From positions 576,001 to 640,000 of the forward strand of contig CAVZZA010000001.1 of NCBI GenBank assembly GCA_963779615.1: a stretch of 64,000 nt of DNA. Reading direction: 5' to 3'. Below the pieces are notes generated by a model. The model was not told the origin of the DNA. It did no database searches and worked only from the letters and a program-made list of their open reading frames with translations. A program made the translations under genes and the position numbers. Numbering within the stretch: the stretch's first letter is position 1; every line of letters begins with the position of its first letter. Positions 38,892 to 60,862 of the stretch are shown here, piece by piece. The stretch is from an uncultured Nitrososphaeraceae archaeon (GTDB lineage Archaea > Thermoproteota > Nitrososphaeria > Nitrososphaerales > Nitrososphaeraceae).

Positions 38892-39677
38892 ATGACATTA
38901 CCGAAAACTAACCTATCAAATACATTTTACTTAATAATGGCGATTACCACATTTACAATTCTTTTGCAATCCATGACATCTGTTAATGATATTGCATTTG
39001 CACAAGTAAGCAACCAACAGCCAAACATCAATGCCCAGAGTCTTTTCAACACCCAAGCAATGACATTGGGAAACAATGTGAAGAACCTTGTGATACTCAT
39101 ACCCAATGAGGGACACCATGGCCCCAATGAAGCCAGTGAAGCCAGGTTCCTGGAACCGTCATTTGTCCCTGCAAATGCGGTGATAAACACTGGAACCACA
39201 GTAGCATGGTATAATGGTGATTTCGGTCACGAACGTACGGTAAACGTAAAAGACGCAACCGGCAGCTCGGTTGTATTTAGCACCGGGGCAATAATAGACA
39301 ATCAGGCATCAAAAACATACACATTCAACACTCCCGGAACCTACAGTTATGAGGCAATTGGCGACGCGGGTTACATAATGAAGGGCACCATAACTGTCAA
39401 AAACATTCAATCCCCTGTAACCTCACCCGCTGCTGCTGGTGGAATAGACACAGTGGGGGTATTGATGGTTCCAACACAAGACTTAAACAAATACATGCAG
39501 GACATCAAGAATGCCGGTTTAACTGTCGACAGCGGGCATAACTTCAAAGACCTAAGGGGAGGTCAGAGCGGAACAGGAGACGTGCAGACACTCTTGGTGT
39601 GGGCCTCAGGCGGCAAGGATTTGAATACCGCGATTGCGCCCCTAAGCCAGCTATCGTTAACCTTACCATACAGTTAA
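38892..39677 (+). CDS. Secreted Cys-less cupredoxin-like protein (PNEGHH family), copy A
   Basis: FVP...TVAWYNGD..H, YTFNTPGTYSY..MKGTITV cupredoxin pattern; no Cys; ends LPYS. Confidence 0.8.
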   Translation: MTLPKTNLSNTFYLIMAITTFTILLQSMTSVNDIAFAQVSNQQPNINAQSLFNTQAMTLGNNVKNLVILIPNEGHHGPNEASEARFLEPSFVPANAVINTGTTVAWYNGDFGHERTVNVKDATGSSVVFSTGAIIDNQASKTYTFNTPGTYSYEAIGDAGYIMKGTITVKNIQSPVTSPAAAGGIDTVGVLMVPTQDLNKYMQDIKNAGLTVDSGHNFKDLRGGQSGTGDVQTLLVWASGGKDLNTAIAPLSQLSLTLPYS

Positions 39678-39729
39678 TAGCGTCTTTTTCTTATTTTCCA
39701 AGTCAATTTAATACCCCACTTCTCCATTA

Positions 39730-40115
39730 TGGGAGTATGATGTGGTAACCTTACAAAATTCCCTCGTATGAAAGATGGTGACACGAAGTTGTTGATCCAG
39801 GTTTGGGGAATGGTATAGATGTGTTCCTGGCTGCAAATGTTGTCAAGGAAAACTGAAAGTTCTGGAGTGGATGTGACGGATAAAATGTTAGATAAAGCAA
39901 GGGACAATGGTGAAAAATATAATTACAAAATGTTGATTTTGGACAAGGATACATTGAAGAAAAAATACCAGGAGAGGATAACAGTGTGGATATTGTTACA
40001 AGTAATTGTGTGATCAATCTTGCATCAAGCAAGGTAAATGCATTCAAGGAGGTTTACTGAATCCTAAAACCAAACGGAAATGGTAAAATGGTTATCAGAT
40101 CTAGTCACGGATAAA
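39730..40115 (+). pseudogene. Arsenite methyltransferase (ArsM-like) relic
   Basis: Across frames: GIDVFLAAN, GVDVTDKMLDKAR, DNSVDIVTSNCVINL..K..AFKEVY*ILKP, ISDLV. Confidence 0.8.
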
Positions 40116-40139
40116 TGGGTAGCAGATACAGGTGGGCTC

Positions 40140-40553
40140 ACGATTTTAACAAACTCTGCCTTGTCCAAAACAATGTTTATTTCACTGATGGTTTGCTTGA
40201 TTTACTCCACTGGTGCGTTACCGTCTATCTGTGTCCTAGTTTTTCCATTAACAGTGATTATTCATGGTCTGACAACTCTTTGCCTATTGGCTGCTCAATG
40301 TGCTCAAAATTGTCCAAATAGGCTGCTGTTGCCCACTCTTCGGCCTTGGTCGAGTCATTGGTCGAGTATGATGCGATTACCTGATCAAGCAGTGATCTTA
40401 TGTTGATATTTGGCCTTGGGTGCTTTTTTCATCAGATGCTGTATTGTTTGCTTGGGCAAATGATGATGATGCAGTATTGCCTATCACTAAAGATATGGCG
40501 GCCACAACAATTGCGACAAATGCTTTGTTTCCTTGCTGAATGTTTGTAAGCAT
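40140..40553 (-). pseudogene. Internally deleted copy of the 62514-63605 gene
   Basis: 40160-40390 matches 62548-62780, and 40440-40553 matches the signal-peptide region 63484-63605. Confidence 0.85.
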
Positions 40554-41333
40554 TTTTTGAATTTTTTCTTCAACATTATTCAGCAATTATAAAAATGCGT
40601 TATAGAAAGAAGCATTGCGAACTTTGTTGAATTTCAGTTTTATTTAATTATTTTACTGGTTACTATCGGGGCATATATCTATTCCCAAGAAAGAGAATGT
40701 CAAATACCTCCTAAATTGAAATGTCGCTACCAGAACACTAAACAGTGTATGGTGGGCATCTATGGCATTAGAGAATATACTATCCTAACTATTTTATGGA
40801 AAGATCTGACAAAATCAACTTATGGATGAACATGGTAAAACAATTATACCTGAATGAATGGAACTTTGTTTTGCCATGTTATGCTGCTTATTGTAGGAGT
40901 CTTGGCCTTTGCCTTAAAGGATTCTCAGAAAAGTAATGCTTCCACAGATAGCTATAACCCGGATAACCCAAATGATTCGCCATTCTGTTTACCGTTGATT
41001 CCGATGCTGCAGATCAGTCAGACGATGGAGATTATCAGTCAGACGGTGACATACCATTCCCATAACGTATTTCCGCCTCTAAATATTAAAAAAATACTAT
41101 AAAAAATTTAATCCATTTCTTTTCCTTTTTAAAATACCAAAATGATTCACCATGTCAGGTTTTATAAATAAAATTGAATGTTTGTAAAAATTTGAGAAGA
41201 TCTTTCTTCAATTGCAGCCTTAAATTCAGGCGTTGCATTCAACTTTTATTGTAACGTCAACAGGAACAAGATCTTCTGGAGAAACAATTACCCTCCTACG
41301 ATCTTTATTTATGATGTTATTTTAACAACGGAG

Positions 41334-41381
41334 AATCATGATCAGGTTTATATTTTTGTTAGGCTTACCTAATCATGTCTA
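41334..41381 (+). promoter_or_regulatory. 48-bp promoter/operator block, copy 2
   Basis: TTTATAT at 41347, TTAGGCTTACCTAA at 41359-41372, ATG at 41375. Confidence 0.6.
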
Positions 41382-41624
41382 AAATAACAAACTAGACACA
41401 AAAAATAGGCGCAATCTAATACACATCAAATCCTGGGTAAGTCATAAACACTGGAACATAGTCAACTGGGACTCATATTCACGATAATAAAGGAGTAAAC
41501 GTTATTGGGGATGACATTGGCATTCTTACCATCACTCCTTTATTGTCTCTTTAATACTAATATCTATCGTTACTCAACGATAGATATTTTATTTTTTTTT
41601 CACTATATTTACGGATAAATGGAC

Positions 41625-41800
41625 ATACTATCCATTCTTAATATGAGAAAATATCATTGAGAGAACCATGCAGTACATCAAAGGCAGAACAAAATATTAT
41701 GATGATTAATACCCGGTAAAAAAATCTCAAACTAAATCAAATGCAAAATTGGCTAATCATATGTTTGATTCCACATCAAGGAATTAGAAACTTTTTAGCG
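41625..41800 (+). mobile_element. IS6 transposase 3' relic
   Basis: ENIIERTMQYIKGRTKYYDD matches EKSIVERTMQCVKDMTECFDD of the 61-kb IS. Confidence 0.7.
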
Positions 41801-41877
41801 TAAGGAAATCATTTACAAAATAACTAATAAAAAATGAGCAAAAGAATAGGAAGAAGAAGTTTTTCTTATCTGTTCTT

Positions 41878-43584
41878 CTAATTGTTCTGGTCGTTCTGGT
41901 CTTCCTGGTCGTTCTGGTCTTCCTGGTCTTCTGGTCCTTTCACGTGGATTTCTCCAACCATGGAAGGATGGTAGACACAATAGTATGGGAAAGTGCCGGG
42001 TATGTCAAACACCAAGCTATAGTGCTGGCCCGTCAGAATCGCATTTGAGTCAAACAGGCTTCCCTCATCCGTATCTTCACCCGTTCCCGAAGTTACGGTA
42101 TGGGAGGCTATGTCCCCATTAAACCATGTAACCGTTTGCCCAACATCAATTTCAATTGGGTCTGGAGAATAGGAATTGCTGCCATCAATCCCTACAATTA
42201 TTGCCTTTGTGGAATTGGCCGGCGGTGCCATATTTGAAACATCGGTGATATTAGAAGAGACCGGTTTTTTTACCTCCGCTTTGGCTTGTGACTTTGGCAG
42301 GATTTTATAGAGATCCCCGTGATAGCCCAAAACATAAAGGTACCCGTCTGGGCCAACCTTCATATCGGTAATCCCACCAAACCCCTGGCCAAATATTATT
42401 GGCTGGTTCTCAGGGGGCGTGTCAGCCTGGTTGTCGGACAATGCCTCAAAGTCACCCACATAGGTGTTGTTGGTGATTTCAATGTCCTCCCTATCGTCAC
42501 TCAGGGTGAATCTGTACAGATACCCGTTGTTGATGTCACCTGTGAACATGTTGTTTTCATACTCTTTGCCAAGCTTGTCCGAGTTCAGGAACTTAACCGC
42601 GGTGGGACCGACTGTTGTTTTCCAAACGAATTTTGGGTCACTGTACTCACTATTTCCCAAGGTAACAAGATCGCTGTCTGAAAACCCGGTCTGCAAAAGG
42701 TCATCGTCGGCATATCCCTGAATCAGGGACCAACCGCCATTAAACCCCGGTTTGATCAGGTTAACTTCATCCCCCGTGTCGGGACCGTTCTCTGTGTCCC
42801 ACAGGTTTCCTGTTACCGGGTCAAAATCCATGCCAAAACTGTTGCGGATTCCTATCCCATAATACAGGCTCAACGGCAAATCCTCACCAAAAATCGGATC
42901 CCCTGGCACAACCTTGCCATCCTGGGTCATTCTCAGCACTCCACCCACACCGTTGGCCTCAGGCCCTGTGGCATTGTTTTGGGTGATGGTCCTATGTCCA
43001 CCAACCTCGCCAACAATCACATACACATTGTTATCGGGCCCTATCACAACCTTACCACCATTGTGTTCCGCCCTGCCATTAACTGGAATTGCGGTTAAAT
43101 CCAAAAGAAGCACAGGGTTAAACAGCTGTCCATCCTTGTACTCATATCTGTACAGCCTGTTGCCCAATGGATCAATGTTGGTTGTTGCAGGGGAATCACT
43201 CCCATCCAGATTGTTTCCAGACTCGGTATAATACAGAAAAACATAGGTTTTGCCAGTATCGTTGTGCTTGGATACGGCCATGCCAAGCAATCCCCGCTCA
43301 ATCTGGTTAGCCACAGCAAGATCAAGCACAGGTATGTTTCTTTGAATGTCACCGTTAAATATCCTATAAACGATGCCAGTGTTTTTTTCTGTCACAAGAA
43401 TGTCATTGGGACCTACAAAAGCCATACTTGTTGGGGCCTTTAATCCTCCTGCTATTTTCACAACTGCGAGGTTTGGGTCATTGACCGAAGGGCCAGTGGG
43501 TAATGCTGGCGCTTTTACATAAGCACCAAATGAAAAATATACGGGTAAAACAACCGACATTGATAGTACACCAAAAAAGAACAT
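41878..43584 (-). CDS. PQQ-dependent sugar dehydrogenase (sGDH/YliI type) fused to a C-terminal plastocyanin domain
   Basis: PTSMAF, ERGLLG, HNGG, GIRNSFG..FDP.TG.LW.TENG, DEVN..GFNGGW; SHTV..YYCVYHPSM type-1 Cu site. Confidence 0.9.
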   Translation of the reverse strand: MFFFGVLSMSVVLPVYFSFGAYVKAPALPTGPSVNDPNLAVVKIAGGLKAPTSMAFVGPNDILVTEKNTGIVYRIFNGDIQRNIPVLDLAVANQIERGLLGMAVSKHNDTGKTYVFLYYTESGNNLDGSDSPATTNIDPLGNRLYRYEYKDGQLFNPVLLLDLTAIPVNGRAEHNGGKVVIGPDNNVYVIVGEVGGHRTITQNNATGPEANGVGGVLRMTQDGKVVPGDPIFGEDLPLSLYYGIGIRNSFGMDFDPVTGNLWDTENGPDTGDEVNLIKPGFNGGWSLIQGYADDDLLQTGFSDSDLVTLGNSEYSDPKFVWKTTVGPTAVKFLNSDKLGKEYENNMFTGDINNGYLYRFTLSDDREDIEITNNTYVGDFEALSDNQADTPPENQPIIFGQGFGGITDMKVGPDGYLYVLGYHGDLYKILPKSQAKAEVKKPVSSNITDVSNMAPPANSTKAIIVGIDGSNSYSPDPIEIDVGQTVTWFNGDIASHTVTSGTGEDTDEGSLFDSNAILTGQHYSLVFDIPGTFPYYCVYHPSMVGEIHVKGPEDQEDQNDQEDQNDQNN

Positions 43585-43694
43585 AACAAAGGTTAATGAA
43601 ATTTTTATATAGAACGCCTCTCAAAATACTAAAATAATATTCTATAACCTTTAATAAAATAAATAAAAAATTGGTACATGCCAGTTTTGTCTAA

Positions 43695-44468
43695 TTATTT
43701 GTAAGGCAGTGATTCAAGTATTGGGAAAAGCTTTGGGATTGCTTGGCCAATTGGTGCTGAGGTTGAGTAAATAATCAAAGAGTTAGGTCCATTGATATCT
43801 TTTTGCACCGTTTTATCAACGAAATCATATGATGAGAGAACATTAAACCCTGCTTTTGCAAAGTCTGACTTGTATTTTTCAAGCGATGGGGTGGGAACAA
43901 AGAGGCCTCCCACCACCAAATTCCCTGCGGATTTTACATTGTTGGATACTGTTATTGTGCCTTTCATGTCAGGGTATTTTTCATCTTTCACATCATATTT
44001 TCCTGCAGGCAATACCTTGGCGTCAGAACCACCAGGATGCTCCACAGGAGTTGTTTGCCATGCAACAGTGCCACTGCTTGAATCTGTTACTGTTCCTACA
44101 TGGACATGCCCAGGATCGCCATGAACATAGGCTATTGACGCGCCAGATGGAACCACAAGATTGCTTGGCACATAAGACGGGTTCTTTAAGCTGATTGTCT
44201 TTTGGTCAACTAGTGGATGATGGCCTTCATCAGGAATTGAAATGATGGCACCACTTACAGTTGATGGTAATGCCATTGTTCCTGTTTCATAGACTGATTG
44301 TGCAGACGGGATTCCACCACCATTATTATTATTGTTAGGACCATTGGTGTTTATTCCCTGTGCATTTACATTAGCGAAACCATTCGACACTATCAACAGG
44401 GCAACAGCCAAGATAGCAATAAACAAAGAAGGAATAATCGTTTTAATTTTCAAATTTATCACATCCAT
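43695..44468 (-). CDS. Secreted Cys-less cupredoxin-like protein (PDEGHH), copy B
   Basis: IPDEGHH, YVP, GDPGHVH, MKGTITV, LPYK; start placed at ATG 44468. Confidence 0.8.
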   Translation of the reverse strand: MDVINLKIKTIIPSLFIAILAVALLIVSNGFANVNAQGINTNGPNNNNNGGGIPSAQSVYETGTMALPSTVSGAIISIPDEGHHPLVDQKTISLKNPSYVPSNLVVPSGASIAYVHGDPGHVHVGTVTDSSSGTVAWQTTPVEHPGGSDAKVLPAGKYDVKDEKYPDMKGTITVSNNVKSAGNLVVGGLFVPTPSLEKYKSDFAKAGFNVLSSYDFVDKTVQKDINGPNSLIIYSTSAPIGQAIPKLFPILESLPYK

Positions 44469-45001
44469 GTCCCATTTTAACCTAAATTGACAGTGATGCA
44501 TTTCCGAATAAAAGGAGTAACATTAGCATATTTTGATAGTGTTTGCTCGTCATTGTTTTTATGCTTTTGAGTTTTTTTAATTTTTGGAATGTAGTCGTAG
44601 TGTTTGTTTTTGCATCCATAGATTTTTTATAATGGCTCGCATATTAAGTAATTTGGTACAAGTGACTAAACAACAGCAACAATTTATTGCAAACAATATA
44701 ATTTCATTTAGATGCTTGTACTATCATAAATCAGCATCAAACTGCATTCTTTATAGCAAACTGTTTGGTAATAAGGATTTATTATATTTAAGTAAAAATA
44801 TGAGAGAAATTTCCTTCGGTTCACGCAGCCAACATCCGAATTACAAATTTAATGACCTTTTATAGTACATTGAATGATAAAGTTTTAGTACACAAATTAA
44901 CCCTTCAATATTGGTGAACTAGGGCTATCTCTTTCCATAAAATTCTAATACGCGCAGAGATATTGAATACTGCATAGATTTTGTAGATTGGGGTTTGTTA
45001 T

Positions 45002-45562
45002 ATGAAGAACTTTGGCGACCAGGATGAAAATTCAAATAGAATATTGCTTCATATAAAAGAAAATCCAGGGTGTTACCTTCGTCAAATAAAAAATGACTTG
45101 CACCTGTCGATGGGATCCATACAATACCACTTAAATAAATTAGAAAACGGAGGAAGGATTACCTCCCAAAGAAGCGGTCTTCATAAACATTACTTTCCTA
45201 TCGGGGTTTTTAATGATAATGAAAAAGAAATAATGAGATTTTTAACTCTGGAAACCTCAAGGGAAATAATAATGTTTATAACAGAGCAAGGCAACCCTAC
45301 ACAGACTGACATTGTAAAAAAAATTGATATCTCGTCATCTTCCATAAATTGGCATTTACAAAGAATGTTAAATTCAAAGTTAATTGAAGAGATAAAAGAC
45401 GGAAAATTCAAACGATATGTCTTGAACTCTGAAGTAAGTTCAACGTATATTGGTAAACTACTAAAAAATTATTACCCCAGTATTTGGGACAAATGGAGCA
45501 CCAGGTTGGCTGAAATGTTTTTAAACATCTCCTCTATTGATGATACAAAAGAGAAATATTAA
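45002..45562 (+). CDS. Tandem winged-HTH regulator
   Basis: IKENPGC.LRQI..L.LS.GSIQYHL..LE and a second HTH ISSSSINWHL. Confidence 0.85.
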   Translation: MKNFGDQDENSNRILLHIKENPGCYLRQIKNDLHLSMGSIQYHLNKLENGGRITSQRSGLHKHYFPIGVFNDNEKEIMRFLTLETSREIIMFITEQGNPTQTDIVKKIDISSSSINWHLQRMLNSKLIEEIKDGKFKRYVLNSEVSSTYIGKLLKNYYPSIWDKWSTRLAEMFLNISSIDDTKEKY

Positions 45563-45922
45563 ATGATGTTTTATTATTTATCACAAATGTTATTTATTGG
45601 ATTTTCTCAACTAAACCTCTTATCCATCTTTTCGATAGAAATTGAACCAATTGGGGTAACACAAAAATTAATTTATGTTCTCATTGGAATATTTTCTATA
45701 TTGCTGCTGCTGCTGTCTATTTCATCCTACAAAAAAACAGGCTTGAGAAGCATTTTGTATGCAGCAGGTGCGTTTGGATTGTTCTCCATTAGCATATTCA
45801 TAGAAGCGATAGAGGAGAATTTCAATATCTTGGGCTCCATTTTACTCGATTTTCTTGGTGCCTTAATAACTCTTGTAATTTTGATTCTTTTCTTTTTAGC
45901 TATTGTAAAAAAGAACAAATGA
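45563..45922 (+). CDS. Small 3-TM membrane protein adjacent to an HTH gene
   Basis: SYKKTG..ILYAA.AF resembles AFKKTK..MLYL.GF of 38441. Confidence 0.75.
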   Translation: MMFYYLSQMLFIGFSQLNLLSIFSIEIEPIGVTQKLIYVLIGIFSILLLLLSISSYKKTGLRSILYAAGAFGLFSISIFIEAIEENFNILGSILLDFLGALITLVILILFFLAIVKKNK

Positions 45923-46391
45923 TTTTGTTATTTTTTTGGTTATGTGTTACGCAATTAATATACTGGTTAGATGGTATGGATGGAAATTCAGTAAGGCTGT
46001 GAAGTATATTTTTTAAATATGGGGGGATTTCTATTTTCTTTGCATTAGTGGCTGCTTTCTATTTCTTTGAGTTCTTTTTGATAACATGTACAACATCCAT
46101 GGAGAAAATACATGGTTAAAATGGGGGCTTACCATTGTAAAAATTATCCCGTTTATTTTTTGCTGAATCCAGTGCAAAATATGCCGGAAAAAAAATAATT
46201 TAGTAAAAGAAGGATAATCCAAAATGATTGGGTCATACCAAATGTTATCCAATCTTTTTGATTTTAAATTAGCTAATGCCTAAGTGAGTGGTGTTTTTTT
46301 AATTTCAACCGGAATTGCTTGTTTTTCTCTTCTTCGTTTTTGTTTCAAAATGTTGTGCGATTTTACACATTATTTTTTATTTGTTTGTTCT

Positions 46392-46697
46392 TTATTCCGA
46401 TTTACTGTCGCCCCCACCCTTAGGAATAACGCTGCTACCGCTTGATCCTGTGCTTGCGGATGAGCTATAAGCTTTGCCATTACACTGTTTAATTTCTTGT
46501 TCTGTCGCATAACCTTTTGTCCCCTCTCCCTTAGCAAGGCACATTTGAAAATCTTTATAGTTAGCCTTGGCGGCGCTAGTGCTTGCCTTATCCGTGCTAG
46601 TTCTCGCTGATAAAGGGTTCACAAGAGCACTTGAGGAAACAAATATGGCTATTATGAAAATTATGCCAGCGACCGATACTGTTTCTTTTGGAGCCAT
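46392..46697 (-). CDS. Small secreted protein with a Cys pair
   Basis: Signal peptide; FQMCL...EIKQC. Confidence 0.65.
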   Translation of the reverse strand: MAPKETVSVAGIIFIIAIFVSSSALVNPLSARTSTDKASTSAAKANYKDFQMCLAKGEGTKGYATEQEIKQCNGKAYSSSASTGSSGSSVIPKGGGDSKSE

Positions 46698-47355
46698 CAG
46701 AAAGAATATAAATAATTGCCTAATAAGTAATCTGATACAAGTGACTAATTATTGGTAAAATTTTATTGCCATTAATCAGTTTTCATTTAGGTGATTGTAC
46801 TATTGCCAATAGGTGTATGTTAAATGTATTGTTGCTATTTGTTATAATTATTTTAAACATTAAACCAAAAATACTTCAACAGTTTATAGTGAATGTGTTA
46901 ATTTACTTGAGTGGTAACAACGGGAGGCTGCAACCTCGGTGAACATGAAAGATAATATGCAAAGGCAAAGGCATCCAAACATTTCGCCAACATGAACAAT
47001 TTGGCGCTGTTCTTCAACTGACAATGCTTAATTATCCGTGTAGTATATTTGTTCGTTTGGTATGCATCTAAAACAATGCGTGAATTGGTTTGATAAAACA
47101 ATACAGTCTTTTGGAAAATCCCAAGCCCTTTATATAAACACAATTCATGGTCATTGTGTTCCAAAGATGTTCTTTTACGGGTTCATGATGGATAGACCGT
47201 CTTCATCTATATCTTTTTTTGCAAAGTTGGCAGCCCCAACTTTTCTGATAATACAAGTATACAAATGAAACGAAATTATTTAGCAAAAAATTTTTGCTGT
47301 TGTTTAGTCACTTGTATCAGATTACTTAATTATGTGGAGGGGCTAAAAATTTAGT

Positions 47356-47586
47356 ATGCCTCTACAAACGGTTAAGGAAACAGATGAGGAAAAATTAGAA
47401 ACACTAAAGTATAATTTGGAATGGCTTTATAAAAACTATGAATACTTTGAAAAATATCACAAGAATCAATTTGTTGCAATTAAGGACAAAAGCTTTTTGG
47501 ATAAAGACTCTGAACTTGAGAGACTGGTAAAAAGGCTAAAGATAAAAAATCTCGATGACTCAATTGCAATAGAGTTTATCTACTGA
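47356..47586 (+). CDS. Small DUF5678-like protein
   Basis: WL..NY...Y.NQFVAIKD pattern. Confidence 0.55.
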   Translation: MPLQTVKETDEEKLETLKYNLEWLYKNYEYFEKYHKNQFVAIKDKSFLDKDSELERLVKRLKIKNLDDSIAIEFIY

Positions 47587-47892
47587 ATAAAATAAACTCG
47601 CTTACAGAACTTATCTTTCAGATCAATTGATCGCGCTTAAATTGAAATCAAACACCAATAAAATATATGAAGTTATGTTATATGGTATCTTCTTTTGATA
47701 TAAAAGAAAGGTATTCTTCATCCTTATTAGGATAAACAATATTTTTGAATCAATATCCTCTTTGCTATCATATTCTGATATTGGCCTTGTATGATAAATT
47801 TTTGTTGACTCATACCTTTAGAATAACCTAGTCAACAAAGCATAGCAGATCAAATGAGAATGATTTCACATACCCTTAGCATTGGCAATCAT

Positions 47893-48558: not shown

Positions 48559-48632
48559 ACAATCATATATTGTATGTTTTATATCTATAGTGACTTTCAA
48601 AAATAGTCTAAACTGATAGTAAATTGTGAAAT

Positions 48633-49689: not shown

Positions 49690-50378
49690 TGTAACTACTG
49701 CATATTGATGCTAAGACAATACATCAACAAAAGTCAGTCGTATTGGGTACTGACACACGCCATTTTGTAGTTTTACTGACCAATGAAGGCCATGTGTCCA
49801 TCAACCAACCAACCAACCAACCAACCAATATCCGCTTGCCGACCAAGACTGCATCCCACAAGATATCGAAGTTGATAGAGGGACATCGGTGGCCTGGCTT
49901 AGTGGAGATGCTGACCGTGACCGTACGGTCAGGTTCCACACACCCAATCCTGAAACCTTCGGGCCACCAATGAGTTTCCATATCTAGGTTACATCACTGT
50001 ACCCTTTAACCTACCATGGAAATACTCATATTTTGAGGACAAAGTAAACAATCACGAAACATCTTTTGTGATGAGGGGAACTGTTACCGTAGTGGATTCA
50101 AACCAAAAAACTACAGTTAGCAGTAGCATAGGCATACAGCCTCTAAATACCTCAGGAATCTTAATGGTGTCCTCAAAAGACCTTCAAGCCCATATTGCTA
50201 CGTTAAAAAATAATGGGATTACAATACCAAGCGACTGCGCATTTACAGATTTAAGAGGCGGATAAAAGGGAACAGGGAAAACACAGGCAATATTTTTGTG
50301 GGGTCCTGAAAAAAATAACGTTGACCAAGTCCTATTGCCAATGATAGTTGGTGCAAAAGGTTTGCCCATATTTAAATA
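49690..50378 (+). pseudogene. Frameshifted fourth copy (D) of the Cys-less cupredoxin family
   Basis: IDAKTIHQQKSVVLG..FVVLLTNEGH, GTSVAWLSGDAD, MRGTVTVV, GILMV, FTDLRGG*KGTG, GLP; (AACC)n run at about 49803-49829. Confidence 0.85.
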
Positions 50379-50457
50379 AATAGTACTTTTTTTAATTACA
50401 TATTTTTATTGTAGTTAATGGATTGGATTAAATGTAAATATTTCACATCATAAAAAA

Positions 50458-51981: not shown

Positions 51982-53393
51982 ATGCGAAACGAGAATAAGG
52001 TGGTTAAAAATGTAATCTATGGAATATCAGGTTTGACTTTACTCCTTTTGATAATATCTTTGGGAGCACAAACACCTTCTAGTGCTCAGCTTCCACCTGA
52101 TGTGGATGGGAACAAAACAACAATACAACTAGCTTTGAAAACAGAATACATCAGGGCGAGAATTATGTAAAACTTTTAGCACAAGATATAGAGAACAGAC
52201 TCAAAAAAGTTGCGGCAATACTTGAACTCACAAGCATGTTACCAGAAGTAAAAAACACCTCCTCTGCGCATATGCTTAACGATACCATAGAACAGCTAAA
52301 AGGAATGCCTCAAAATGCAGATATTCCTAAAAGACAGGTGGCCAAAGATATTTTAGGAAAATATGGCGAGTTTCAGGTGGTGTTCTTTGTGATGCCAAAT
52401 GGTGACATGTATATTGAGGAGCCATATTCTTATCAAGAGAATCTCTCTAAAACTAATTTTGCATTCAGGGATTACTACAAAGGTGCGATAAATAATCATG
52501 ATACTTTCTTAGGTAATGTAATAGTGTCTGCTTCCTCTGGCCAGAATCAGGCTGTGATAGCGGTGCCAATCTATTCAGGGGCAAATGGATCATTAACAGG
52601 AATATGGGCTGGTGGCTTGGATTTGAATGATTTTAACGAGAGCCTTCAATTATTGAACCTGTCTAACAATGAACGCATAGTATACGTGGATAATCTTGGT
52701 CAGGTGGTTGCAGACTCAGACAAACAATTATCATACCAAAACGAATCATTTGCCAATCTTCAAGGATTCAAAAATGCCGTTAATGGAAAGTCAGGGACCA
52801 TTAAAGAAATAGTTAACGGCACAGAAATGCTTGTCTCCTACTATCCAATCAAAGCCCTTTCAAGCAATTGGGCAGTTTTGTTAATTCAGCCTTATCATGG
52901 CAATTCCGTTAGCTCATCCAGCACTTATGCATTAACTAATAACGGTATAATGAAAAACGAAATGCAAGAATTGCTGTTACAAAATACATCAAAGTCAAAA
53001 CCTGCTCCTGTTAGACATCCCGGACAACCATCTCATGAAGTCGTATTTGCTCTTCCATTAAGAGAAGACGGAAATGTGTATTCAGGAACAGTGACATTCA
53101 CTGCAAGTAAACCAATAGAGGTAGAAGTACTTCACACTTATTCTCCAAAGGAGAAGCCAGATTCATTACATGGTGAGCCATACCATGCTGTATTGCCAGG
53201 CAATAAAAGTATCGCTATTACTCATCTAAGAGATATAGTTGATGTACCAATAGAGATTAACGGTACCGGAATAAGCTCTGGTTCATTTGATTTTGTAGGA
53301 AATGCACTCGTGTTTCATAAAACAACTGGTGAACCATTTACAGTGACATACACTGTTGATGCCGTTGTCAAGGACTTGAATACAAATAACTAG
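51982..53393 (+). pseudogene. Secreted Cache-domain + His-motif beta-domain protein, split by one frameshift between 52100 and 52168
   Basis: Signal peptide ORF ends at 52170 while the upstream extension of the 52236 frame (ENYVKLLAQ...) is open; FAFRDYYKGA, IAVPIY, YVDNLGQVVA, W.V Cache motifs. Confidence 0.75.
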
Positions 53394-54714
53394 TTAGATA
53401 ATGAGATCCTGCAAGTGTGTTAAGCATCATAGAAACAGTTGCACAGAACTGAGCCCTCATTTACGCCATTTGTTTTGGCATATTCATATTTTACCTATGG
53501 CCCATTAATTTGCCATCTGGGGTAAATTTGCCAGCTGCATATACACCTTCGATTTTCATCAACTGACCTAAGTAAACAATGAAGTTTGTTTTTCTGTAAA
53601 GTATAAAGCATTCTTCATGCAATACTATCAATGCAGAGATAAAAATACAATTAGGTTTTAGGATATTCCTTATTCTAATTTATTAAGAATTCAATTTCAT
53701 ATAACAGACATGATAATGGTAAATGTTTATAAAAAAGGAGTAGTAGTTAATTATTGTTGAATCTTTCAATTTAGGGGTTGAAACGAAAGATTACTTTTGG
53801 GCACCAGGGGAATGTGATTCAAAAATGAATGAATGGATCCTAAATGTGGTTCCCAGTATTATGCATATTAAAAACAGTGCATATTTTGAGATTATTGTTT
53901 TTAATATTTGCTTAAACCATCTATAAAACAATAGGTTAATTGCATTAAATCTGCTTTGTCACATAACTGTGAAATTCGTCAATTTATAATATAGCACATA
54001 TCGGCACAATACGAATATCGATTATTCCCCTTGCGGAAATAAAACTAACACATCTAAAAAATACGAAAATTTGAGTTACGCAACAAATCACATTAAATCA
54101 TTAAATAATTAAATAAATAATCAATTATGTTCAACCTAAATGATTTCGGTTAGTTTATTCTAAGAATGTACCGATATCCTTTTTATTTAAAATATTGTAA
54201 AAGTATTTGCAGTTTGCAATAAAATGCAAAAGTGCTTGCCCAGCAATAGGATAGTGCGACATAAAGAACAACCAGCCTGCAAATGGACATATTCTGATGA
54301 GAAAATACTGTCATTGAAGGATGATTATAGATGATGCATCTTGCTAATGTACTCTATTAAAAAGGGCGTCATCTTCCTCCTTCAATGATTATCTAATAAC
54401 ATAATTACGAGAAGAAGTGATATTGATCTGTTTCAATAAAATAGTTATTCGTTTATATTATTTTCAATCCTAAATAGGGTATTTCAAGTAAGATTAAAAA
54501 TGAAGTGAGTAGTTTTTTAAAAACTCAATTAAATAAGGAGGACAGCTAACTCAAAAACAATAATTTTTTTCTTTCTTAGATGACCTTTTTAATTGTGTTT
54601 TTTAGCTTAAAGGATATCAAGTAATTTGAGATTATTCCAAATAAGTTACATACATATGTTTTTGGGAAAATAGTGCTTACAAAACTGTATAAAAAAATTA
54701 ATAAAAATAAAAAA

Positions 54715-55396
54715 CTATGGTGTTGTAAAGTCTATCTTTGGAAAGGTTATGCTTTCTATGTTTTCAGTGCACCCAAATGCTCCGGTCCAGGTACCCTTGT
54801 TAAACTTTGTTGTGGGACCTTCAGTTGATGTACAGAACACTGTTTTGTCTATGGGGATTTCGGCCACATCAAAGTAGTTTATTGTCCCGTATACTTTATA
54901 TCCGTAAATTCCCGGGCTTTGAATCTGCTTTGAGACATAGTGCCCTGGGTCACCAAACAATTCGCTTAGCTTCACATTCTTTTTGATTTCATCTGCCTGT
55001 GTGATGGAGGAGGCGGCATTAAAGCTGCTTATGCTCTTGAAGTAGTACTTGTCGATTGTCAAGTTGGCGCCCTTCAGCGGCAATTTTGTTGCGGCATCGC
55101 TTAGCAAAATCTCCACATCATGCTCTCCTGTGTGTACGCCTGGGACTACTCCATATGCTGGCTCATTCGGAGTGCCCTACAACCACACTTACGGGGTTTG
55201 CGTTCTTTTGATCAGGATCGCTGTTGTCTGGGTTTATTGTTGTTGATGCGTGTGGGAATGCATATGCTGTTCCTGAATATAGAGACAGTGTAGCAGTAGC
55301 AGCAAGTATTACAGCCATAACATAAAATCCAATGTTATTGGTTTTTAAATTCTCACTCTCACTTTTGGAGTTTTTAATCATTGATAAAAGTTGCAA
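54715..55396 (-). pseudogene. Secreted hypothetical protein split by a +1 frameshift at about 55168
   Basis: Removing one base gives VVVGHSNEPAYGVVPGVHTGEHDVEILLSD. Confidence 0.75.
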
Positions 55397-55518
55397 CAGG
55401 GCATTTTAATACATTTTGAACGATCACTATATGATTTTATTCTGTAGAGCGTTAGCAGAACAATTGAATGTACCGATTTGTTGTAATTCTTAAGTCATAG
55501 TAAAAACAAAAAAAAGCA

Positions 55519-56184
55519 ATGAAACACAAATGCTTGGATCACTCCAATGCAAAAAAGATACTATTACCAACAATAAGTATTATAGCTATACTGAGCGTTA
55601 TTTGCGTATCATCATCGATGTCACCCAACCAGGCCTTTGCAAGCCACAGCTTTGAGCTTGGTGTGTCGGGAAGCAGCATACCTGACAACACCCACATTGC
55701 ATTGGGCGGCATAACGCTGGCCAAGGGCGAGATACTGCCACTCTATGACGCAAGCCCCAACTTTGTGGCGGGTCATTTTCTAGCCAAGGTGCCATGTGAC
55801 TCCAAAAAGGTTCCAAAGGTTACCGTGATAGCCGGGCACATTGATGAGCACCACGACACGACCCACGTTGACAAGGTGCCGCTGTACTACATTTCACACG
55901 CATCGGACCGCCTAAGCTGCACCTACCATGCCCATATCCCAGACCCATTAAATGGTGGCTCACCAAGAGTGACAGACATTGATTTTGTCAACCTCTCCTC
56001 CTCACCTATTGAATTCAACGGTGGGGATGCAGTGGACATCAACGTTCAAAGGTCACTTGGAAGCATAGTTTCACAGTCCTATGAGGGTGATACCAAACTG
56101 CCTAGCACCATAAAGCACGGGAACCCGGTATTTGACCTGAACGACAACAACCCAAACAATGATGGATTGGGGGCAGCAGATTAA
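55519..56184 (+). CDS. Secreted His/Cys-motif protein (LYD..GH..PC..CxYH family)
   Basis: Signal ending AFA; LYDA..AGH..KVPC, HIDEHH..H, CTYHAH, TDI..N. Confidence 0.8.
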   Translation: MKHKCLDHSNAKKILLPTISIIAILSVICVSSSMSPNQAFASHSFELGVSGSSIPDNTHIALGGITLAKGEILPLYDASPNFVAGHFLAKVPCDSKKVPKVTVIAGHIDEHHDTTHVDKVPLYYISHASDRLSCTYHAHIPDPLNGGSPRVTDIDFVNLSSSPIEFNGGDAVDINVQRSLGSIVSQSYEGDTKLPSTIKHGNPVFDLNDNNPNNDGLGAAD

Positions 56185-56648
56185 TTACAGAAACACCGAA
56201 ATACAGTCTTCTCCCTCTCTTTTTTTCTTTTCCGTTTATTGAACATTAAATGTGTTTATGTATAGGAGTATTCTTATGGCATGCTAATTTGGTTTATGGT
56301 GTTTGGGTAAACAGATTTTTAAAAGTTACTAAAATTAGTACTTATTATTACTATCTGTTTGTTATCATTTTAAAAATCATTCACCCAAATAAGAACAAAA
56401 GATGGTGAAGGTATCGCCCTTACCATCTTTTAATGAGAACGCAATAAGTCCTAATTGTTTATCGCTTTCCCGGACAAGGTCCAGCGTAATCCAACCGGCA
56501 TAAGCAATTAATCAAAACTGCAATATAAGGCTCTTGATACATTCGTAGAATGTACAAATCGTTACTGGTAACATTTTCAATTGTTGTGTTGATTTAAGCT
56601 GATGGTCCAAAAAAAACAAAAGGGTAAAAAAAATGGTTGGTTTATGCC

Positions 56649-57290
56649 CTAAGAGGATGGTGTGGTGGTAGCACTAGATGTTTGGTTCATGGCAGCCATG
56701 TTGGTCATCTGACTAACTCCTCCTCCTCTCTCTTCAATTGTCATGCCGCCCTGGCTAGCAGGTGCTTGTGCTGGGTCTTTCATTATCTCGTTAATGCCTA
56801 CAATTGCAACGCTGTCCTGGGGGAATGTTATCTCTTTGTTGGATGGATTGTGCAATGCCAGGTCAGTTATCAGCCATCCATTTGGTCCCATCTCAGAGGC
56901 AAGGTCGGTATGGTACATGCAAGTGACACCGGTTATTGACATGTTGGCAACTGGATGTAACTCAAGTGGTCTCAAAAATGTCTGGTCTCCGGCTATTCCT
57001 CCAAGCACCTGCAATAATGGCTCTGATTTTTCATTGCATGGTATGTTGACCGATACATGTCCATCCATTATGTGAAAGCTGCCTGTGTCATAAAGGTGGA
57101 TGTGGGCTCCTGCTGAAACTGATTTGGATTCTAGCAACAGAGTGACCGAGTCCCTTGTAATTACATCTTCTGCCATTGTTTGATTTGTCCCCTGGGCTTG
57201 GGCGGAAACATTGAGCGCCGGGATAAAGGATGACGCAATAGTTGCCGCTAAAACTATAAATAAAAAGTATTTAGTATACATTAATGGCAT
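56649..57290 (-). CDS. Secreted His/Cys-motif protein (same family)
   Basis: HIHLYDT..HIMDGH..IPC..CMYH..ITDL..N. Confidence 0.8.
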   Translation of the reverse strand: MPLMYTKYFLFIVLAATIASSFIPALNVSAQAQGTNQTMAEDVITRDSVTLLLESKSVSAGAHIHLYDTGSFHIMDGHVSVNIPCNEKSEPLLQVLGGIAGDQTFLRPLELHPVANMSITGVTCMYHTDLASEMGPNGWLITDLALHNPSNKEITFPQDSVAIVGINEIMKDPAQAPASQGGMTIEERGGGVSQMTNMAAMNQTSSATTTPSS

Positions 57291-57457
57291 ATAATAAACA
57301 AAGGTAATAAAGTTATGGAAAATTATTCGAAAACTTGAAATTTTTACAGTTTACAATCGTCATATAAATAAAATATTAATGAATCCTTTAAAATAATCAA
57401 ATTTGTTGCAGTCCAGCTGTAATTCAAAAATGAATGAAACGCATTTTTAATTCTAAG

Positions 57458-57765
57458 AATGTCTACAACGCAACCAAGGCGGCCGTGCGCTCTTTTGCGC
57501 CCACCTGAACGGCCGATCTAAAGCAGCGCAGGATACGCGTCAACGCCATCAGTCCCGACCCAATAGAAACACCAGGCTTTAATGGCCTGCTGGAGACTGA
57601 CGAGCAGAAGGAGCAAATTAGAAAGGGGCTTTTGTCCGCCGTGCCTATGGGCGGATGGGAAGTCCTGACGAAATAGCGAAAGCCGCCACATTCATAGCGT
57701 CAGACGACAGCAGTTTCATCACCGGCATTGAGCTGTTCGTCGATGGGGGCATGGCGCAGATCTAG
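57458..57765 (+). pseudogene. 3' fragment of a short-chain dehydrogenase/reductase
   Basis: [44 protein letters not shown]; internal stop and frameshift. Confidence 0.85.
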
Positions 57766-58714
57766 GCGACTTGGACCGCGGGTATTTGGCCCCGGCTACA
57801 GATAATAATCACTAGCGGTGAAAGTGACACACGAGCCAATGTCACCTGGATTGAAACAGACCGTCTTTCCAATGGGGTTTGCCTTTCCCAAGTTTTTGCA
57901 GCAGTAATGCAAATTCGCCACCGCATCGTCGGTGTCGTGCACTGCTGAAAGACCAGTCTAACAACTACAACTGTTCCATAGATCCATACCAGCGGTGGTA
58001 TGGTATATGCTTCCTCCATGGTGAGCGGGTATGCGCATGTCAAAAGCGCAAACATGCTGCGTCAGCCCCGGAAAGAGGCTATGTGAGTGGCAACAGAAAA
58101 CACACCCATCCCATCCTCAACGAATGGTTTTGGCAAATGCCCTGCCCTGTTCTCCTTATTGCGTTATATAAGCAATGTCAGCATAGATATACTTAAGGAT
58201 AATTCATTAAAGATTGGTGTATAAAAGTACACAACTCCCCCCTATACTTATATATAAACATTTTGGCAAGGGTTGGGTTCTCCTTTTTTTAAGTGGGCCG
58301 TGTCGCATAGAGGGATCCCCTGCTTTTCGGCCTCAGCGATGGTTACGGGCAACCCCAAAGCGGGTCATCCTCATCCAATGTGCCAAGGTGAAGGGTGTCT
58401 GTTCGCGTGGAAGGGGAGGGGATTGAGTCCATACACGATTGCTTTGGCATCCGAGGCCCATGCCTGGCGGGTGCTGTATGCAGCGGTCATCCAGAACCCA
58501 AACAGGCAGCAGCAGGAAATACCGTCATGCGCGTGCATGAGGAGGTTATGAGGAGGTTATGGTGACTGCATACATGAAACATGGACATGAGGAAAGTACA
58601 ATGCTGTTAGCAACAAATTGATGTAAGGAGGCAACAGTGCCATGCTGCTCCATCATGTTTTTAAGGGGTTTTTGAAGGTGGTTTTTCCTTTTGAGTGCTG
58701 CCCTAGCCACCGCC

Positions 58715-59995
58715 TCAACCCTTCACGTCAAAGACACCCATCCACCCAAGCTCCGAAAACTCATTCACATGCGAATGGAACATGTACCTGCCATCAAAGC
58801 CAAACTTAAACTCCATTACCCCCCTGTCCCCCTGTCCAAGGGTGACGATGTCGTTGAGGTATGACTCCTCTGTGGAGGTGCCACCGGGATAGTAGTTGAA
58901 CATGTTTCCGTGCATGTGAAAGGAGTTCACCGGGTCAAACTCCAGCATGTTGACCAGGTAAATGCGGTAGTCAACGCCCCTTTGCAGCGGAATGGGGTGG
59001 TCCATGTAGTCAAACGCCCTTCCGTTTACCGTGTAGACCTCATTGGTGTGCTCAAACTCCTGCGGCATGTAGTCTTCCCTCACCTCCTCGGGGGTTGGAA
59101 TCCTGCTTGGGCCGACACCCTCCTTTTCATAGTCCAGGTCATAGCCGTTCATCATCATCGCCATCTCAACCATGTGGGGCCTTGGCGTCTTTGGGTCGAT
59201 GATGAACATGCCATACAGGCCCTTGTTGATGTGCTGGTCAATTGGGGTTACGTGGCAGTGGTAGGGGTAAACGCCATGGGGCTGGGCAACAAACGTGTAG
59301 GTGTAGCTCTGCCCGGGCATTATCTGGCCCCCCGGCCCCTCCATCCCGTCCATGCTTGCCGGGTGGACGGAATGCGTATGCAGTGAGTGGGGGTGGCTGT
59401 TCTCCTTGCCGTTTATGACGTTTATCTTGACAACATCCCCCTCCGTGACCCTCATGGTTGGTCCGGGTATGGTGCCGTTGAAGGTCCAGGCGTTGTCAAA
59501 CGTCAAGCCATGGTTTGCGATGGGTATCGACTGGTTTTCCTTGACAACCAGGGTGAACTCCCTTGTCACCTGCTTTTCACCGCCAGGCAACGTGTCTGTT
59601 TTCACGTGGCCGCAGTTAAAGTAGGTGAGGTACTCTATGGATGTTGGCTGCTTGCCCGTGTCCTGGCTGCAGTTTTTCAGTTTGTCGTAATCCTGAACCG
59701 AGGGCGACTTGGGGCCAGCGCTGTCGGAGGGGGATGATGATGAGGAGGTGGTGGTGGTGGGGCCAGTGGTGGACTCATCGGCATCGCCAGGTGAGGAACT
59801 GCTGCCGCCATGGTCGTCTTCTGCCTCATCCGCAGAGGTGGGATCCAAAAAGCTTGAGGATGCCATTGTCCTGTACGGTGACAGCGACGGCAGCAGCAGC
59901 AGGCTTAAGACAGCCAGCAGCCCAAAAAGAAACCTGGCTGTGCGAAGCAACTTTAACATGTCAACACCACCCAAAAAGTGACCAGTCATTGTCAT
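58715..59995 (-). CDS. Two-domain multicopper oxidase with type-1 site in domain 1 (type C 2dMCO pattern)
   Basis: HSLHTH, YHCH..DQH..GL in domain 1; FHMHG, FHSH with no Cys in domain 2; signal peptide and Ser/Thr/Asp linker. Confidence 0.9.
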   Translation of the reverse strand: MTMTGHFLGGVDMLKLLRTARFLFGLLAVLSLLLLPSLSPYRTMASSSFLDPTSADEAEDDHGGSSSSPGDADESTTGPTTTTSSSSSPSDSAGPKSPSVQDYDKLKNCSQDTGKQPTSIEYLTYFNCGHVKTDTLPGGEKQVTREFTLVVKENQSIPIANHGLTFDNAWTFNGTIPGPTMRVTEGDVVKINVINGKENSHPHSLHTHSVHPASMDGMEGPGGQIMPGQSYTYTFVAQPHGVYPYHCHVTPIDQHINKGLYGMFIIDPKTPRPHMVEMAMMMNGYDLDYEKEGVGPSRIPTPEEVREDYMPQEFEHTNEVYTVNGRAFDYMDHPIPLQRGVDYRIYLVNMLEFDPVNSFHMHGNMFNYYPGGTSTEESYLNDIVTLGQGDRGVMEFKFGFDGRYMFHSHVNEFSELGWMGVFDVKG

Positions 59996-60843
59996 TTGTA
60001 TGGTAACGTTGGGGCTATCTCCTTCAGGGCGGAGATCACGTTCCCAACACCCATTTCAGGCCCGGCGGTCCACACAACCAATGTTTGCTCTGAGTCAGTT
60101 CCCCTTGCCAAACCGCGAACATCCTTGAAGGAGTACGTGCTGTCTATCGAAAATCCCCTGTCTTTGAACTGCGAAATGTATTCATCGGCCTTTTTTGTGG
60201 GGACCATGTAGATCCCCACCGTGTCTGCGTTGTTGGTGCTGCTCGCATTTGGTCCCATCAGCTTGCTTGGCTGATCTGTGACAACAATGTCCCCTCTCAT
60301 GACAAACCCCTTCTGTTCAGCCTCCTGATCTATTTCCGGACTGCTGTAGGCATAACTGCCCACCGCATTAAAGATGGCTGGATTTGATGCGGTGAACTCC
60401 GTAAGAACTCCGCTATCATAGGGACCAGGGCTAACGGAGTTTGGTGCTCCGCCATCCAGTAGAATCTTGTGCTCATGACTTACGTCACCACTAAACCACA
60501 TGACGCTAGTTCCTTTGTTTACAATGGCTTTCTGGGGCAGAAAGGACTGATCAATGAACCTGGCTTCTTTGGGCTCCCCATTGCCGTGATGAGCTTCATC
60601 AGGAATCAATATTACCAGGTTTTTGACATTGTTTCCAAGTACAGCCGTTTTTGTAAGATAGATACTTTTGGCGTCTATGTTTGGCTGTTGATTTTGTACG
60701 CTTTCATCTATCGCAAATACAGGAATACAGTTGTTACTCATCAAAAATAATCCGAAGGTTAAAACAGAGATGAATATTCCAGATAGAAAAATAAATTTAT
60801 TGGCAAAAAGGCCATTTAGATAATCTTTATCATACATTTTCAT
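59992..60843 (-). CDS. Secreted Cys-less cupredoxin-like protein (PDEAHH), copy C
   Basis: LGNNVKNLVILIPDEAHH, GDVSHEH, MRGDIVV, LPYK; ATGA overlap with the MCO. Confidence 0.82.
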   Translation of the reverse strand: MKMYDKDYLNGLFANKFIFLSGIFISVLTFGLFLMSNNCIPVFAIDESVQNQQPNIDAKSIYLTKTAVLGNNVKNLVILIPDEAHHGNGEPKEARFIDQSFLPQKAIVNKGTSVMWFSGDVSHEHKILLDGGAPNSVSPGPYDSGVLTEFTASNPAIFNAVGSYAYSSPEIDQEAEQKGFVMRGDIVVTDQPSKLMGPNASSTNNADTVGIYMVPTKKADEYISQFKDRGFSIDSTYSFKDVRGLARGTDSEQTLVVWTAGPEMGVGNVISALKEIAPTLPYK

Positions 60844-60862
60844 TTTTAGATTCTTAAATAGC

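Follow-up and report, generated by a model that had tools for sequence, protein, structure and literature searches.

Cys-less two-domain cupredoxins with a candidate copper site and an oxidase-linked subfamily in soil ammonia-oxidising archaea

Introduction

What do cupredoxin-like proteins bind, and what do they do, once the cysteine that defines type-1 copper sites has been lost? The question is raised by a 64,000-nucleotide stretch of DNA from an uncultured Nitrososphaeraceae archaeon (GenBank assembly GCA_963779615.1, contig CAVZZA010000001.1, forward-strand positions 576,001 to 640,000; hereafter the window), which carries four related genes for such proteins. We refer to them throughout as Cys-less two-domain cupredoxins, with residue numbers that follow the first of them, copy A. 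They form part of a lineage-wide family with its own conserved set of candidate ligands and an oxidase-linked subfamily, and the reading we favour, to which we give an even chance of being right, is that they are exported non-blue copper-binding proteins acting as copper carriers or chaperones for exported copper enzymes.

The energy metabolism of ammonia-oxidising archaea is heavily copper-dependent (PMC7785015), while it is unknown by which route copper reaches their extracellular enzymes, and debate continues over what their multicopper oxidases do (PMC7785015; PMC12448741). Work on N. viennensis and on biofilms has put forward MCO1-MCO4, CopC/D and plastocyanins as copper-handling candidates (PMC7785015; PMC12448741). 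A Cys-less cupredoxin partner goes unmentioned in the available parts of both papers, which do not extend to the supplementary tables. The abundance of the family described here, its many copies, its restriction to the soil lineage, its ligand set and its tie to an oxidase make it a concrete, testable candidate for extracellular copper handling.

Results

Three intact paralogues and one pseudogene in the window

Three of the four genes are intact open reading frames (ORFs): copy A (38892..39677, plus strand; 261 residues), of the A-type subfamily; copy B (43695..44501, minus strand; 268 residues), from a deep separate clade; and copy C (59992..60843, minus strand; 283 residues), of the C-type subfamily. 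The fourth, copy D (~49704..50376, plus strand), is a pseudogene broken by frameshifts and in-frame stops, and its remnants lie in three frames. This arrangement had been reported in a preliminary description of the window, which also read D as a dead gene with drifted motifs, and both points are borne out: D retains NEGHV, GDADRDR, DLRGG* and the terminus LPIFK. The motifs quoted there, namely IP[ND]E[GA]HH, F/Y-x-P, W-x-x-G-D-x-x-H, G-x-Y, M-x-G-x-I-x-V, G..[MF]VP, DS..F.D.RG and the terminal LPY[SK], are likewise all present.

Copies B and C are 33% and 41% identical to copy A, and the A, B and C types find one another in tblastn searches with E values of 1e-14 to 1e-58, far beyond chance, such that the genes are paralogues. 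Copy D is closest to a representative of a fourth subfamily (P0141; 43-44% identity), with 32-36% identity to A and C and no match to B; it is not a decayed version of A, B or C. Within D, a (CCAA)n microsatellite at ~49792-49834 coincides with the first frame change and may be the slippage site that broke the gene; as a repeat it was passed over when RNA-library sequence was placed on the window. Coverage of the D region in four soil RNA libraries is nearly zero, which is uninformative either way.

A cupredoxin fold without the type-1 Cys-His loop

AlphaFold2 modelling of copy A from a 66-sequence alignment gave a confident model (mean predicted local distance difference test score (pLDDT) 89.6; predicted template modelling score 0.81). 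In this model DSSP assigns residues 8-27 to a hydrophobic helix; a disordered linker leads on to a short helix (48-54) carrying the invariant Ala48, a beta-sandwich (65-170) and a beta-alpha-beta-beta-alpha domain (187-256), giving a predicted architecture of leader helix, Cys-less cupredoxin domain and ferredoxin-like C-terminal domain. The hydrophobic helix (38913..38972, plus strand), which is followed by 'IAFAQ', may be read as a signal peptide or membrane anchor, and the protein would then be exported or held on the outer face of the membrane. Relatives of the family are fused to Big_7, F5/8 type C (discoidin) and polysaccharide deacetylase domains, which also points to an extracellular location.

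The model places the N-terminal domain in the cupredoxin fold, as had been proposed. Structural alignment with VIA-align matched copy A to 9cck_A, the C-terminal cupredoxin domain of an N. maritimus oxidase (Z 9.7, root-mean-square deviation 2.4, 96 residues aligned), and to the N. maritimus cupredoxin 5fc9_A (Z 8.9), followed by 6hbe_A (Z 8.3), EfeO (7wgu_B, Z 8.2), CupA (4f2e_A, Z 7.0) and FtrB (8vuk_A, Z 6.7). Foldseek returned 88 matches at E<=1e-3, including 5fc9 (E 1.1e-5; template modelling score 0.78, target-normalised), and the best 50 of the 88 are all cupredoxin-type copper proteins or domains. Sequence profiles searched against the PDB reach amicyanin (2.5e-5), 9cck (5e-5) and 5fc9 (6.6e-5).

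These type-1 proteins (plastocyanin/amicyanin, 5fc9 and the 9cck C-terminal domain) share with the family a common fold at 26-27% identity over 94-96 residues, together with W-x-N-x-D...H, G-x-Y, M-x-G-x-I-x-V, the first His and the axial Met, and the ancestor of the family was clearly a thaumarchaeal type-1 cupredoxin. Unlike them, the family has neither the Cys ligand nor the second His, and the loop that bears these ligands is shortened or deleted; it adds a 24-residue loop bearing E-x-H-[H/E], a ferredoxin-like C-terminal domain and a fixed P-Y-x end. Membership of the type-1 blue copper proteins was rejected: copy A scores 18.6 bits against Pfam Copper-bind (PF00127), under the gathering threshold of 21.2, copies B and C have no match, and of 36 diverse members just 3 reach E<=0.01; the first His and the Met are retained.

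The C-terminal domain (residues 187-261, 39450..39674, plus strand; ending in L-P-Y-S) gave a pLDDT of 88.7 when modelled separately. VIA-align found generic ferredoxin-like matches only (best Z 7.2), with PII/SbtB, CutA1, ACT and EF-G domains at Z ~6-7; Foldseek gave no match at E<=1e-3 and a search of the ESM Atlas no usable match. The trimeric PII/SbtB and CutA1 proteins recur among these matches at commonplace scores, so that we draw no conclusion on trimerisation. An Atx1/CopZ-like heavy-metal-associated domain was considered and rejected, as the domain has no Cys for an M-x-C-x-x-C motif and such domains are absent from the 50 matches listed.

A conserved set of candidate metal ligands

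Conservation was counted over 170 full-length members and over a second set of 53 (50%-identity clusters plus the window). E73, D110 and H113 are invariant in 170/170, followed by P194 (169/170), H75 and Y260 (168/170 each) and M163 (156/170; 40/53 in the second set). In another alignment of the family (A3), three of the five invariant columns are classic metal-ligand residues, with the near-invariant H75 as a fourth. The signature of the family can be written [IL]P[ND]E[AG]H[HE] ... D-x-x-H-x-H ... M-x-G-x-[IV] ... P-Y-x-COOH.

The E73-G-H75-H76 motif of copy A (39108..39119, plus strand) lies in the new 24-residue loop (71-94) between cupredoxin strands 1 and 2. At position 76, 145 of the 170 sequences have H and 23 have E; among the 53 the figures are 29 and 23. 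The second motif, D110-F-G-H113-E-R115 (39219..39236, plus strand), has the form D-x-x-H-x-[H/R] and occupies the loop that holds the first His ligand in type-1 cupredoxins. Of the 53, 47 have H at position 115, 4 have R and 2 have Y; copy A has R here, as do many of its close relatives (115/170), and the ancestral form of the motif is D-x-x-H-x-H. Alignment to 5fc9 sets D110 and H113 on 'DDSVPH' and so makes H113 the counterpart of the first type-1 His ligand, while the amicyanin alignment places the ligand His at position 115 instead, leaving this assignment uncertain by two residues. M163 (39378..39380, plus strand) falls on the axial Met of type-1 cupredoxins when aligned with HMMER to amicyanin and 9cck. 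True type-1 cupredoxins likewise carry the Asp of G-D-x-x-H, as in 'NDDSVPH' of 5fc9, 'NDDSVVH' of 9cck and 'WFNGDIASH' of a fusion protein encoded in the window, and the invariance of D110 is therefore weaker evidence for a ligand role.

In plastocyanin the copper lies at one end of the sandwich. From the DSSP assignment of the copy A model and textbook cupredoxin topology, the loop with E-x-H (71-94), the loop with D-x-x-H (109-114) and M163 would all lie at the same 'northern' end. Covariation among positions 76, 115 and 163 showed no clear coupling in an alignment whose rows are mutually related, and was not used.

Set against the preliminary description, these counts uphold the loss of the type-1 Cys and second His: 154/170 members have no Cys from Ala48 onward, and no His is conserved in the loop that precedes the Met, which is short, variable or even deleted. 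Its other statements need adjusting to the wider family. The first His is kept throughout and the axial Met is not invariant; of the upstream E[GA]HH motif the Glu and first His stand, with the second His replaceable by Glu; GDxxH keeps its Asp and His in the longer form D-x-x-H-x-H; and the LPY[SK] terminus of copies A, B and C becomes P-Y-x, with exactly one residue after the Tyr in 169/170. The proposal of a new His/Glu/Asp/Met metal site finds partial support in the conservation of E73, H75 and H113, with the qualifications that the Asp may be structural and that the conserved set is wider. It leaves room for a site unlike the one first proposed, possibly binuclear or between subunits.

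A multi-subfamily lineage within one family of archaea

The four copies in the window are related as first described, and the family to which they belong is much larger than four members, lineage-wide and divided into subfamilies. The best database matches of copy A carry source names from Candidatus Nitrosocosmicus and are annotated just as 'plastocyanin', 'cupredoxin domain-containing protein' or 'hypothetical'. A word-indexed protein search with copy A gave 778 proteins at E<=1e-3 among 1633 candidates, and an exhaustive profile search gave 1188 at E<=1e-3, 358 at <=1e-10 and 61 at <=1e-30, with ordinary plastocyanin-repeat proteins among its weaker matches. No Pfam or NCBIfam model and no characterised family in the literature searched captures the signature, and no description of the family was found in print, supplementary expression tables lying outside that coverage.

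The family was matched in 93/151 genomes and in 16/18 genera of the window's taxonomic family, usually in several copies (the tally includes two genomes flagged unpublished, G433 and G475). A phylum-wide sample searched at E<=1e-10 gave matches in 2/401 genomes, the window's own and one other of the same genus, and in 0/56 genomes of the sister family f2. The Cys-less two-domain cupredoxins are specific to the window's taxonomic family, a soil lineage of ammonia-oxidising archaea. The same absence from the sister family, and restriction to the window's genus in the phylum sample, ruled out the idea that they represent a missing core enzyme of archaeal ammonia oxidation.

A maximum likelihood tree of 63 rows, obtained by a quick search (a careful one did not finish), places A, B and C in three well-separated clades with SH-aLRT (Shimodaira-Hasegawa-like approximate likelihood ratio test) support of 96, 100 and 100, the B clade comprising 17 rows and the C-type clade 8. 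With the separate affinity of copy D, this separation indicates that the window holds one member each of four old subfamilies, and the set is thus not a recent local expansion.

The window's own genome gave 20 matches, comprising five intact full-length copies, pieces of about four broken loci including copy D, and weak others that are ordinary cupredoxin domains. Outside the window, split or partial copies lie at contig C3:648-5530 and C1:182026-182788. Several matches in relatives among the 151 genomes also carry stops, and turnover of the family's genes appears rapid.

The C-type gene and a multicopper oxidase gene form a coupled pair

Directly downstream of copy C lies a gene for a two-domain multicopper oxidase of 426 residues (58715..59995, minus strand; Cu-oxidase_3 7.1e-23 and Cu-oxidase_2 3.6e-21 in Pfam; 3gdc 6.7e-74 and 7rab 3.2e-73 in the PDB), in which the ligand motifs HSLHTHSVH, YHCHV, FHMHG and FHSHV are present and conserved. 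Copy C and the oxidase gene share 4 bases (59992-59995), the stop codon of C overlapping the oxidase start. We searched for the oxidase in the same 151 genomes and compared its coordinates with those of the family matches; it was found in 69/151 at E<=1e-60. Of its 19 best orthologues (E<=1e-155), 17, from four genera, are immediately preceded by a family gene on the same strand, which is split between frames in two of these loci (L021, L022). All 6 oxidase-adjacent rows of the tree fall within the single C-type clade of 8. The C gene and the oxidase gene are a tight, translationally coupled pair, a link that the preliminary description did not include.

The oxidase leader has no twin-arginine motif, and the oxidase would accordingly acquire its four coppers outside the cell. 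Complex prediction for oxidase residues 95-426 with copy C residues 55-283 returned a score of 0.00, which speaks neither for nor against binding. The automatic label 'manganese oxidase' (JGI) was set aside as evidence. Contigs from the four soil RNA libraries, 93-99% alike, cover parts of copy B (43894-44601), copy C (59841-60196, 60537-60849 and 59961-60793) and the oxidase gene, which is consistent with transcription and is no proof of it.

The GC content at third codon positions (GC3) is unusually high in several genes: 0.72 in the oxidase gene, 0.59 in an oxidase paralogue at locus L002 (6833-8167), 0.56 in the CbtA gene (33894-34625), 0.54 in the ORF at 55519-56184, 0.51 in the dehydrogenase-plastocyanin gene described below, 0.49 in copy C and 0.47 in copy A, compared with 0.28-0.34 in ordinary genes of the window. 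The orthologues of C and of the oxidase gene in a different species of the genus (L006) have GC3 values of 0.27 and 0.32. Acquisition from a relative of higher GC content, or codon adaptation, could account for the raised values. The DNA just upstream of copy C holds transposase remnants, a DDE_3 fragment (2.2e-13; 61950-62273, minus strand) and a 179-residue ORF without a Pfam match (61082-61621, minus strand), and a DDE-domain ORF adjoins the A-type copy at locus L004; the family may move with mobile elements.

Other copper-enzyme neighbours

Copy B lies 110 bp upstream, on the same strand, of a gene for a glucose/sorbosone dehydrogenase fused to a type-1 cupredoxin (41878..43584, minus strand; Pfam GSDH 2.3e-43, Copper-bind 8.7e-8), the C-terminus of which carries the type-1 loop YYCVYHPSM. 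The A-type copy at L004 is likewise upstream of a dehydrogenase-plastocyanin gene. Over the 24 family genes examined, eight are directly upstream, on the same strand, of a gene for an exported copper enzyme, six times the oxidase and twice the dehydrogenase-plastocyanin fusion.

Discussion

Metal binding of some kind by the Cys-less two-domain cupredoxins is likely. The position of the C-type gene just ahead of a multicopper oxidase gene suggests that the metal handled is probably copper, and the Met retained alongside His and carboxylate favours copper over other metals; in terms of coordination chemistry, such a combination suits copper. We propose that the cupredoxin domain lost its type-1 Cys-His loop while keeping the first His and usually the axial Met, and gained the invariant E-x-H-[H/E] in a lengthened loop after strand 1. 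The E-x-H-[H/E], D-x-x-H-x-H and Met residues would then form a non-blue, type-2-like copper site, and the protein may carry copper, or act as a copper chaperone, outside the cytoplasm. For the C-type the client would be the Sec-exported oxidase encoded directly downstream, to which it would deliver copper or on which it would act in some other way; further exported copper enzymes, among them the dehydrogenase-plastocyanin fusion that follows copy B, would be served by the other types. The tight pairing of C with the oxidase, and the need of the latter for four coppers outside the cell, suggest by analogy a dedicated copper carrier or chaperone; the chaperone role taken by itself is a tentative and somewhat doubtful assignment.

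The closest analogy for how the C-type would work is that of CopC/PcoC, small exported beta-sandwich copper binders encoded beside the multicopper oxidase CopA/PcoA, to which they are believed to pass copper on. The ligand sets and architectures differ, and no CopC domain was matched in Pfam by copies A, B and C (E<=1) or by 36 members (E<=0.01), which leaves the functional analogy intact. Nitrosocyanin, the red copper protein of an ammonia oxidiser (1iby), also matches the fold (Z 6.5) and is a cupredoxin with a carboxylate in its copper site; it keeps the Cys ligand, whereas the family has no conserved Cys.

Several observations weigh against the carrier interpretation. Family genes without a copper-enzyme neighbour make up 16 of the 24 examined, and what adjoins them is varied (VTT, DUF347, solute-binding protein, beta-propeller, transposase). 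No family gene accompanies two of the 19 close orthologues of the oxidase (L023, L024) within the available DNA, nor the oxidase paralogues at 60-62% identity (L025, L026). Within the candidate site, D110 may merely shape its loop, as in true type-1 cupredoxins; 13 of the 53 representatives have Q, L, E, I, T, V or R in place of the Met, and position 76 may be either H or E. A search of the window for TTCSGSMTTTGWACYANT, the promoter motif reported for copper limitation in N. viennensis (PMC7785015), showed no enrichment, with 3 matches at <=3 mismatches where 3.98 are expected, and copies A, B and C all lack a match upstream. Contigs from RNA libraries may include DNA and give no ranking of expression, and no experiments on any member of the family were found in print.

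Among the alternatives, the proteins might be redox-active or catalytic copper proteins and not carriers, which we consider unlikely. In one form they would oxidise Fe2+, Cu+ or Mn2+, as proposed for FtrB and EfeO; in another, H-x-H and E-x-H-H would form a type-2-only centre between subunits, comparable to the interfaces of nitrite reductase or multicopper oxidases, with the Asp as acid/base, working with the neighbouring oxidase. In that oxidase H-x-H motifs bind the trinuclear cluster, and an H-x-H is present in 47 of the 53 representatives of the family; the conserved ligand-type residues (E, H, H/E, D, H, H, M, Y) moreover exceed the need of a single mononuclear site. That R replaces the second His of this motif in copy A and many of its close relatives tells against a redox or catalytic role. 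The metal-oxidising form draws on the Cup-II cupredoxins FtrB (8vuk) and the N-terminal domain of EfeO (7wgu), which are likewise extracytoplasmic cupredoxin folds without the Cys, EfeO matching copy A nearly as well as the type-1 proteins do. In FtrB, D118 is needed for Cu2+ binding and the Asp/His pair D118/H121 is implicated, a cluster of E84, E86 and E93 binds an Fe2+ mimic, and the protein speeds Fe2+ oxidation (PMC11966278). On that account D118 and H121 lie near the C-terminus, whereas the conserved residues of our family lie in the first and third loops and its C-terminal loop is unconserved; with the ligands in a different part of the fold, and neither a C-terminal Asp/His pair nor the Glu cluster found, assignment to Cup-II was rejected. 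The family's sequence profiles also reach type-1 proteins and not FtrB or EfeO, and no Ftr1/EfeU iron permease family was matched among the 17 window and 11 locus ORFs put through Pfam, a set narrower than the whole genomes.

A site for a metal other than copper, such as zinc, iron, manganese or nickel, serving extracellular uptake, buffering or sensing, is quite improbable. Sets of Glu, His and Asp are typical of Zn, Fe and Mn sites, and the surroundings of the A-type genes offer some encouragement: they adjoin an ArsR/IclR-like regulator and a DUF7521 protein in the window and at four other loci, the A-type copy at L009 follows a solute-binding protein gene, and a gene for a CbtA cobalt-transporter subunit lies at 33894-34625. 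Against this stand the Met kept at the axial position in most members, the fact that the recurring enzyme neighbours are copper enzymes, and a scaffold whose nearest relatives are copper proteins. We give just as little weight to the view that no metal is bound and that the proteins are extracellular scaffold or adhesion modules, whose conserved residues tie together the two domains and the C-terminal tail. Metal-free cupredoxin-like domains do exist (CyoA, 1cyx_A, Z 6.0; an S-layer protein, 8qox_B, Z 4.5; ephrins), the fusions to Ig-like and discoidin domains would suit such a role, P194 and the fixed Tyr at the C-terminus have a structural look, type-1 proteins conserve D110 though it is not a ligand there, and the genes decay frequently. 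Packing alone is however an unlikely reason for E73 and H113 to be invariant, and H75 nearly so, across subfamilies that are 22-40% identical; these are exactly the positions that have drifted in the dead copy D (EGHV, GDADR), and the operon link to a copper enzyme also speaks for a metal.

A bolder reading, which we consider improbable, is that the family carries a previously undescribed copper centre on a single cupredoxin domain, with the ligands moved from the C-terminal to the new N-terminal loop, and that the C-type is an obligate subunit or dedicated copper-insertion factor of the oxidase. The centre would consist of E-x-H-[H/E], D-x-x-H-x-H and Met, perhaps with the C-terminal Tyr or carboxylate, would be type-2-like or binuclear, and might possibly lie between subunits, as in nitrite reductase and multicopper oxidases. 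If true, soil nitrifiers would possess a new accessory system that loads their exported copper enzymes. A new ligand arrangement on the cupredoxin fold would be of interest for metalloprotein chemistry and design.

Other features of the locus

The pair divergently upstream of copy A (38157..38713, minus strand) consists of a winged-helix regulator (38157-38444; HTH_IclR 3.7e-5, HTH_20 4.1e-4) and the DUF7521 membrane protein (38441-38713; 1.4e-8), and recurs beside the A-type copies at L001, L003, L005 and L010. Divergently upstream of copy B (45002-45922, plus strand) are a double winged-helix regulator, with an HVO_0163-like N-terminal HTH (2.1e-16), and a small membrane protein, an arrangement that echoes the pair beside A.

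Two stretches of the window contain no convincing ORF, 39678-41877 (~2.2 kb) and 57291-58714 (~1.4 kb), and may represent non-coding RNA or genes in decay, although contigs from the RNA libraries reach into 57001-57227 and 58102-58631. Between copy D and the oxidase gene, the exported-looking proteins encoded at 55519-56184 (plus strand) and 56649-57290 (minus strand) have no Pfam match and are distant paralogues of each other (25% identity over 113 residues, E 2e-7). Both carry His- and Cys-containing stretches (GH..VPC, C.YH), and they may represent another uncharacterised metal-binding family.

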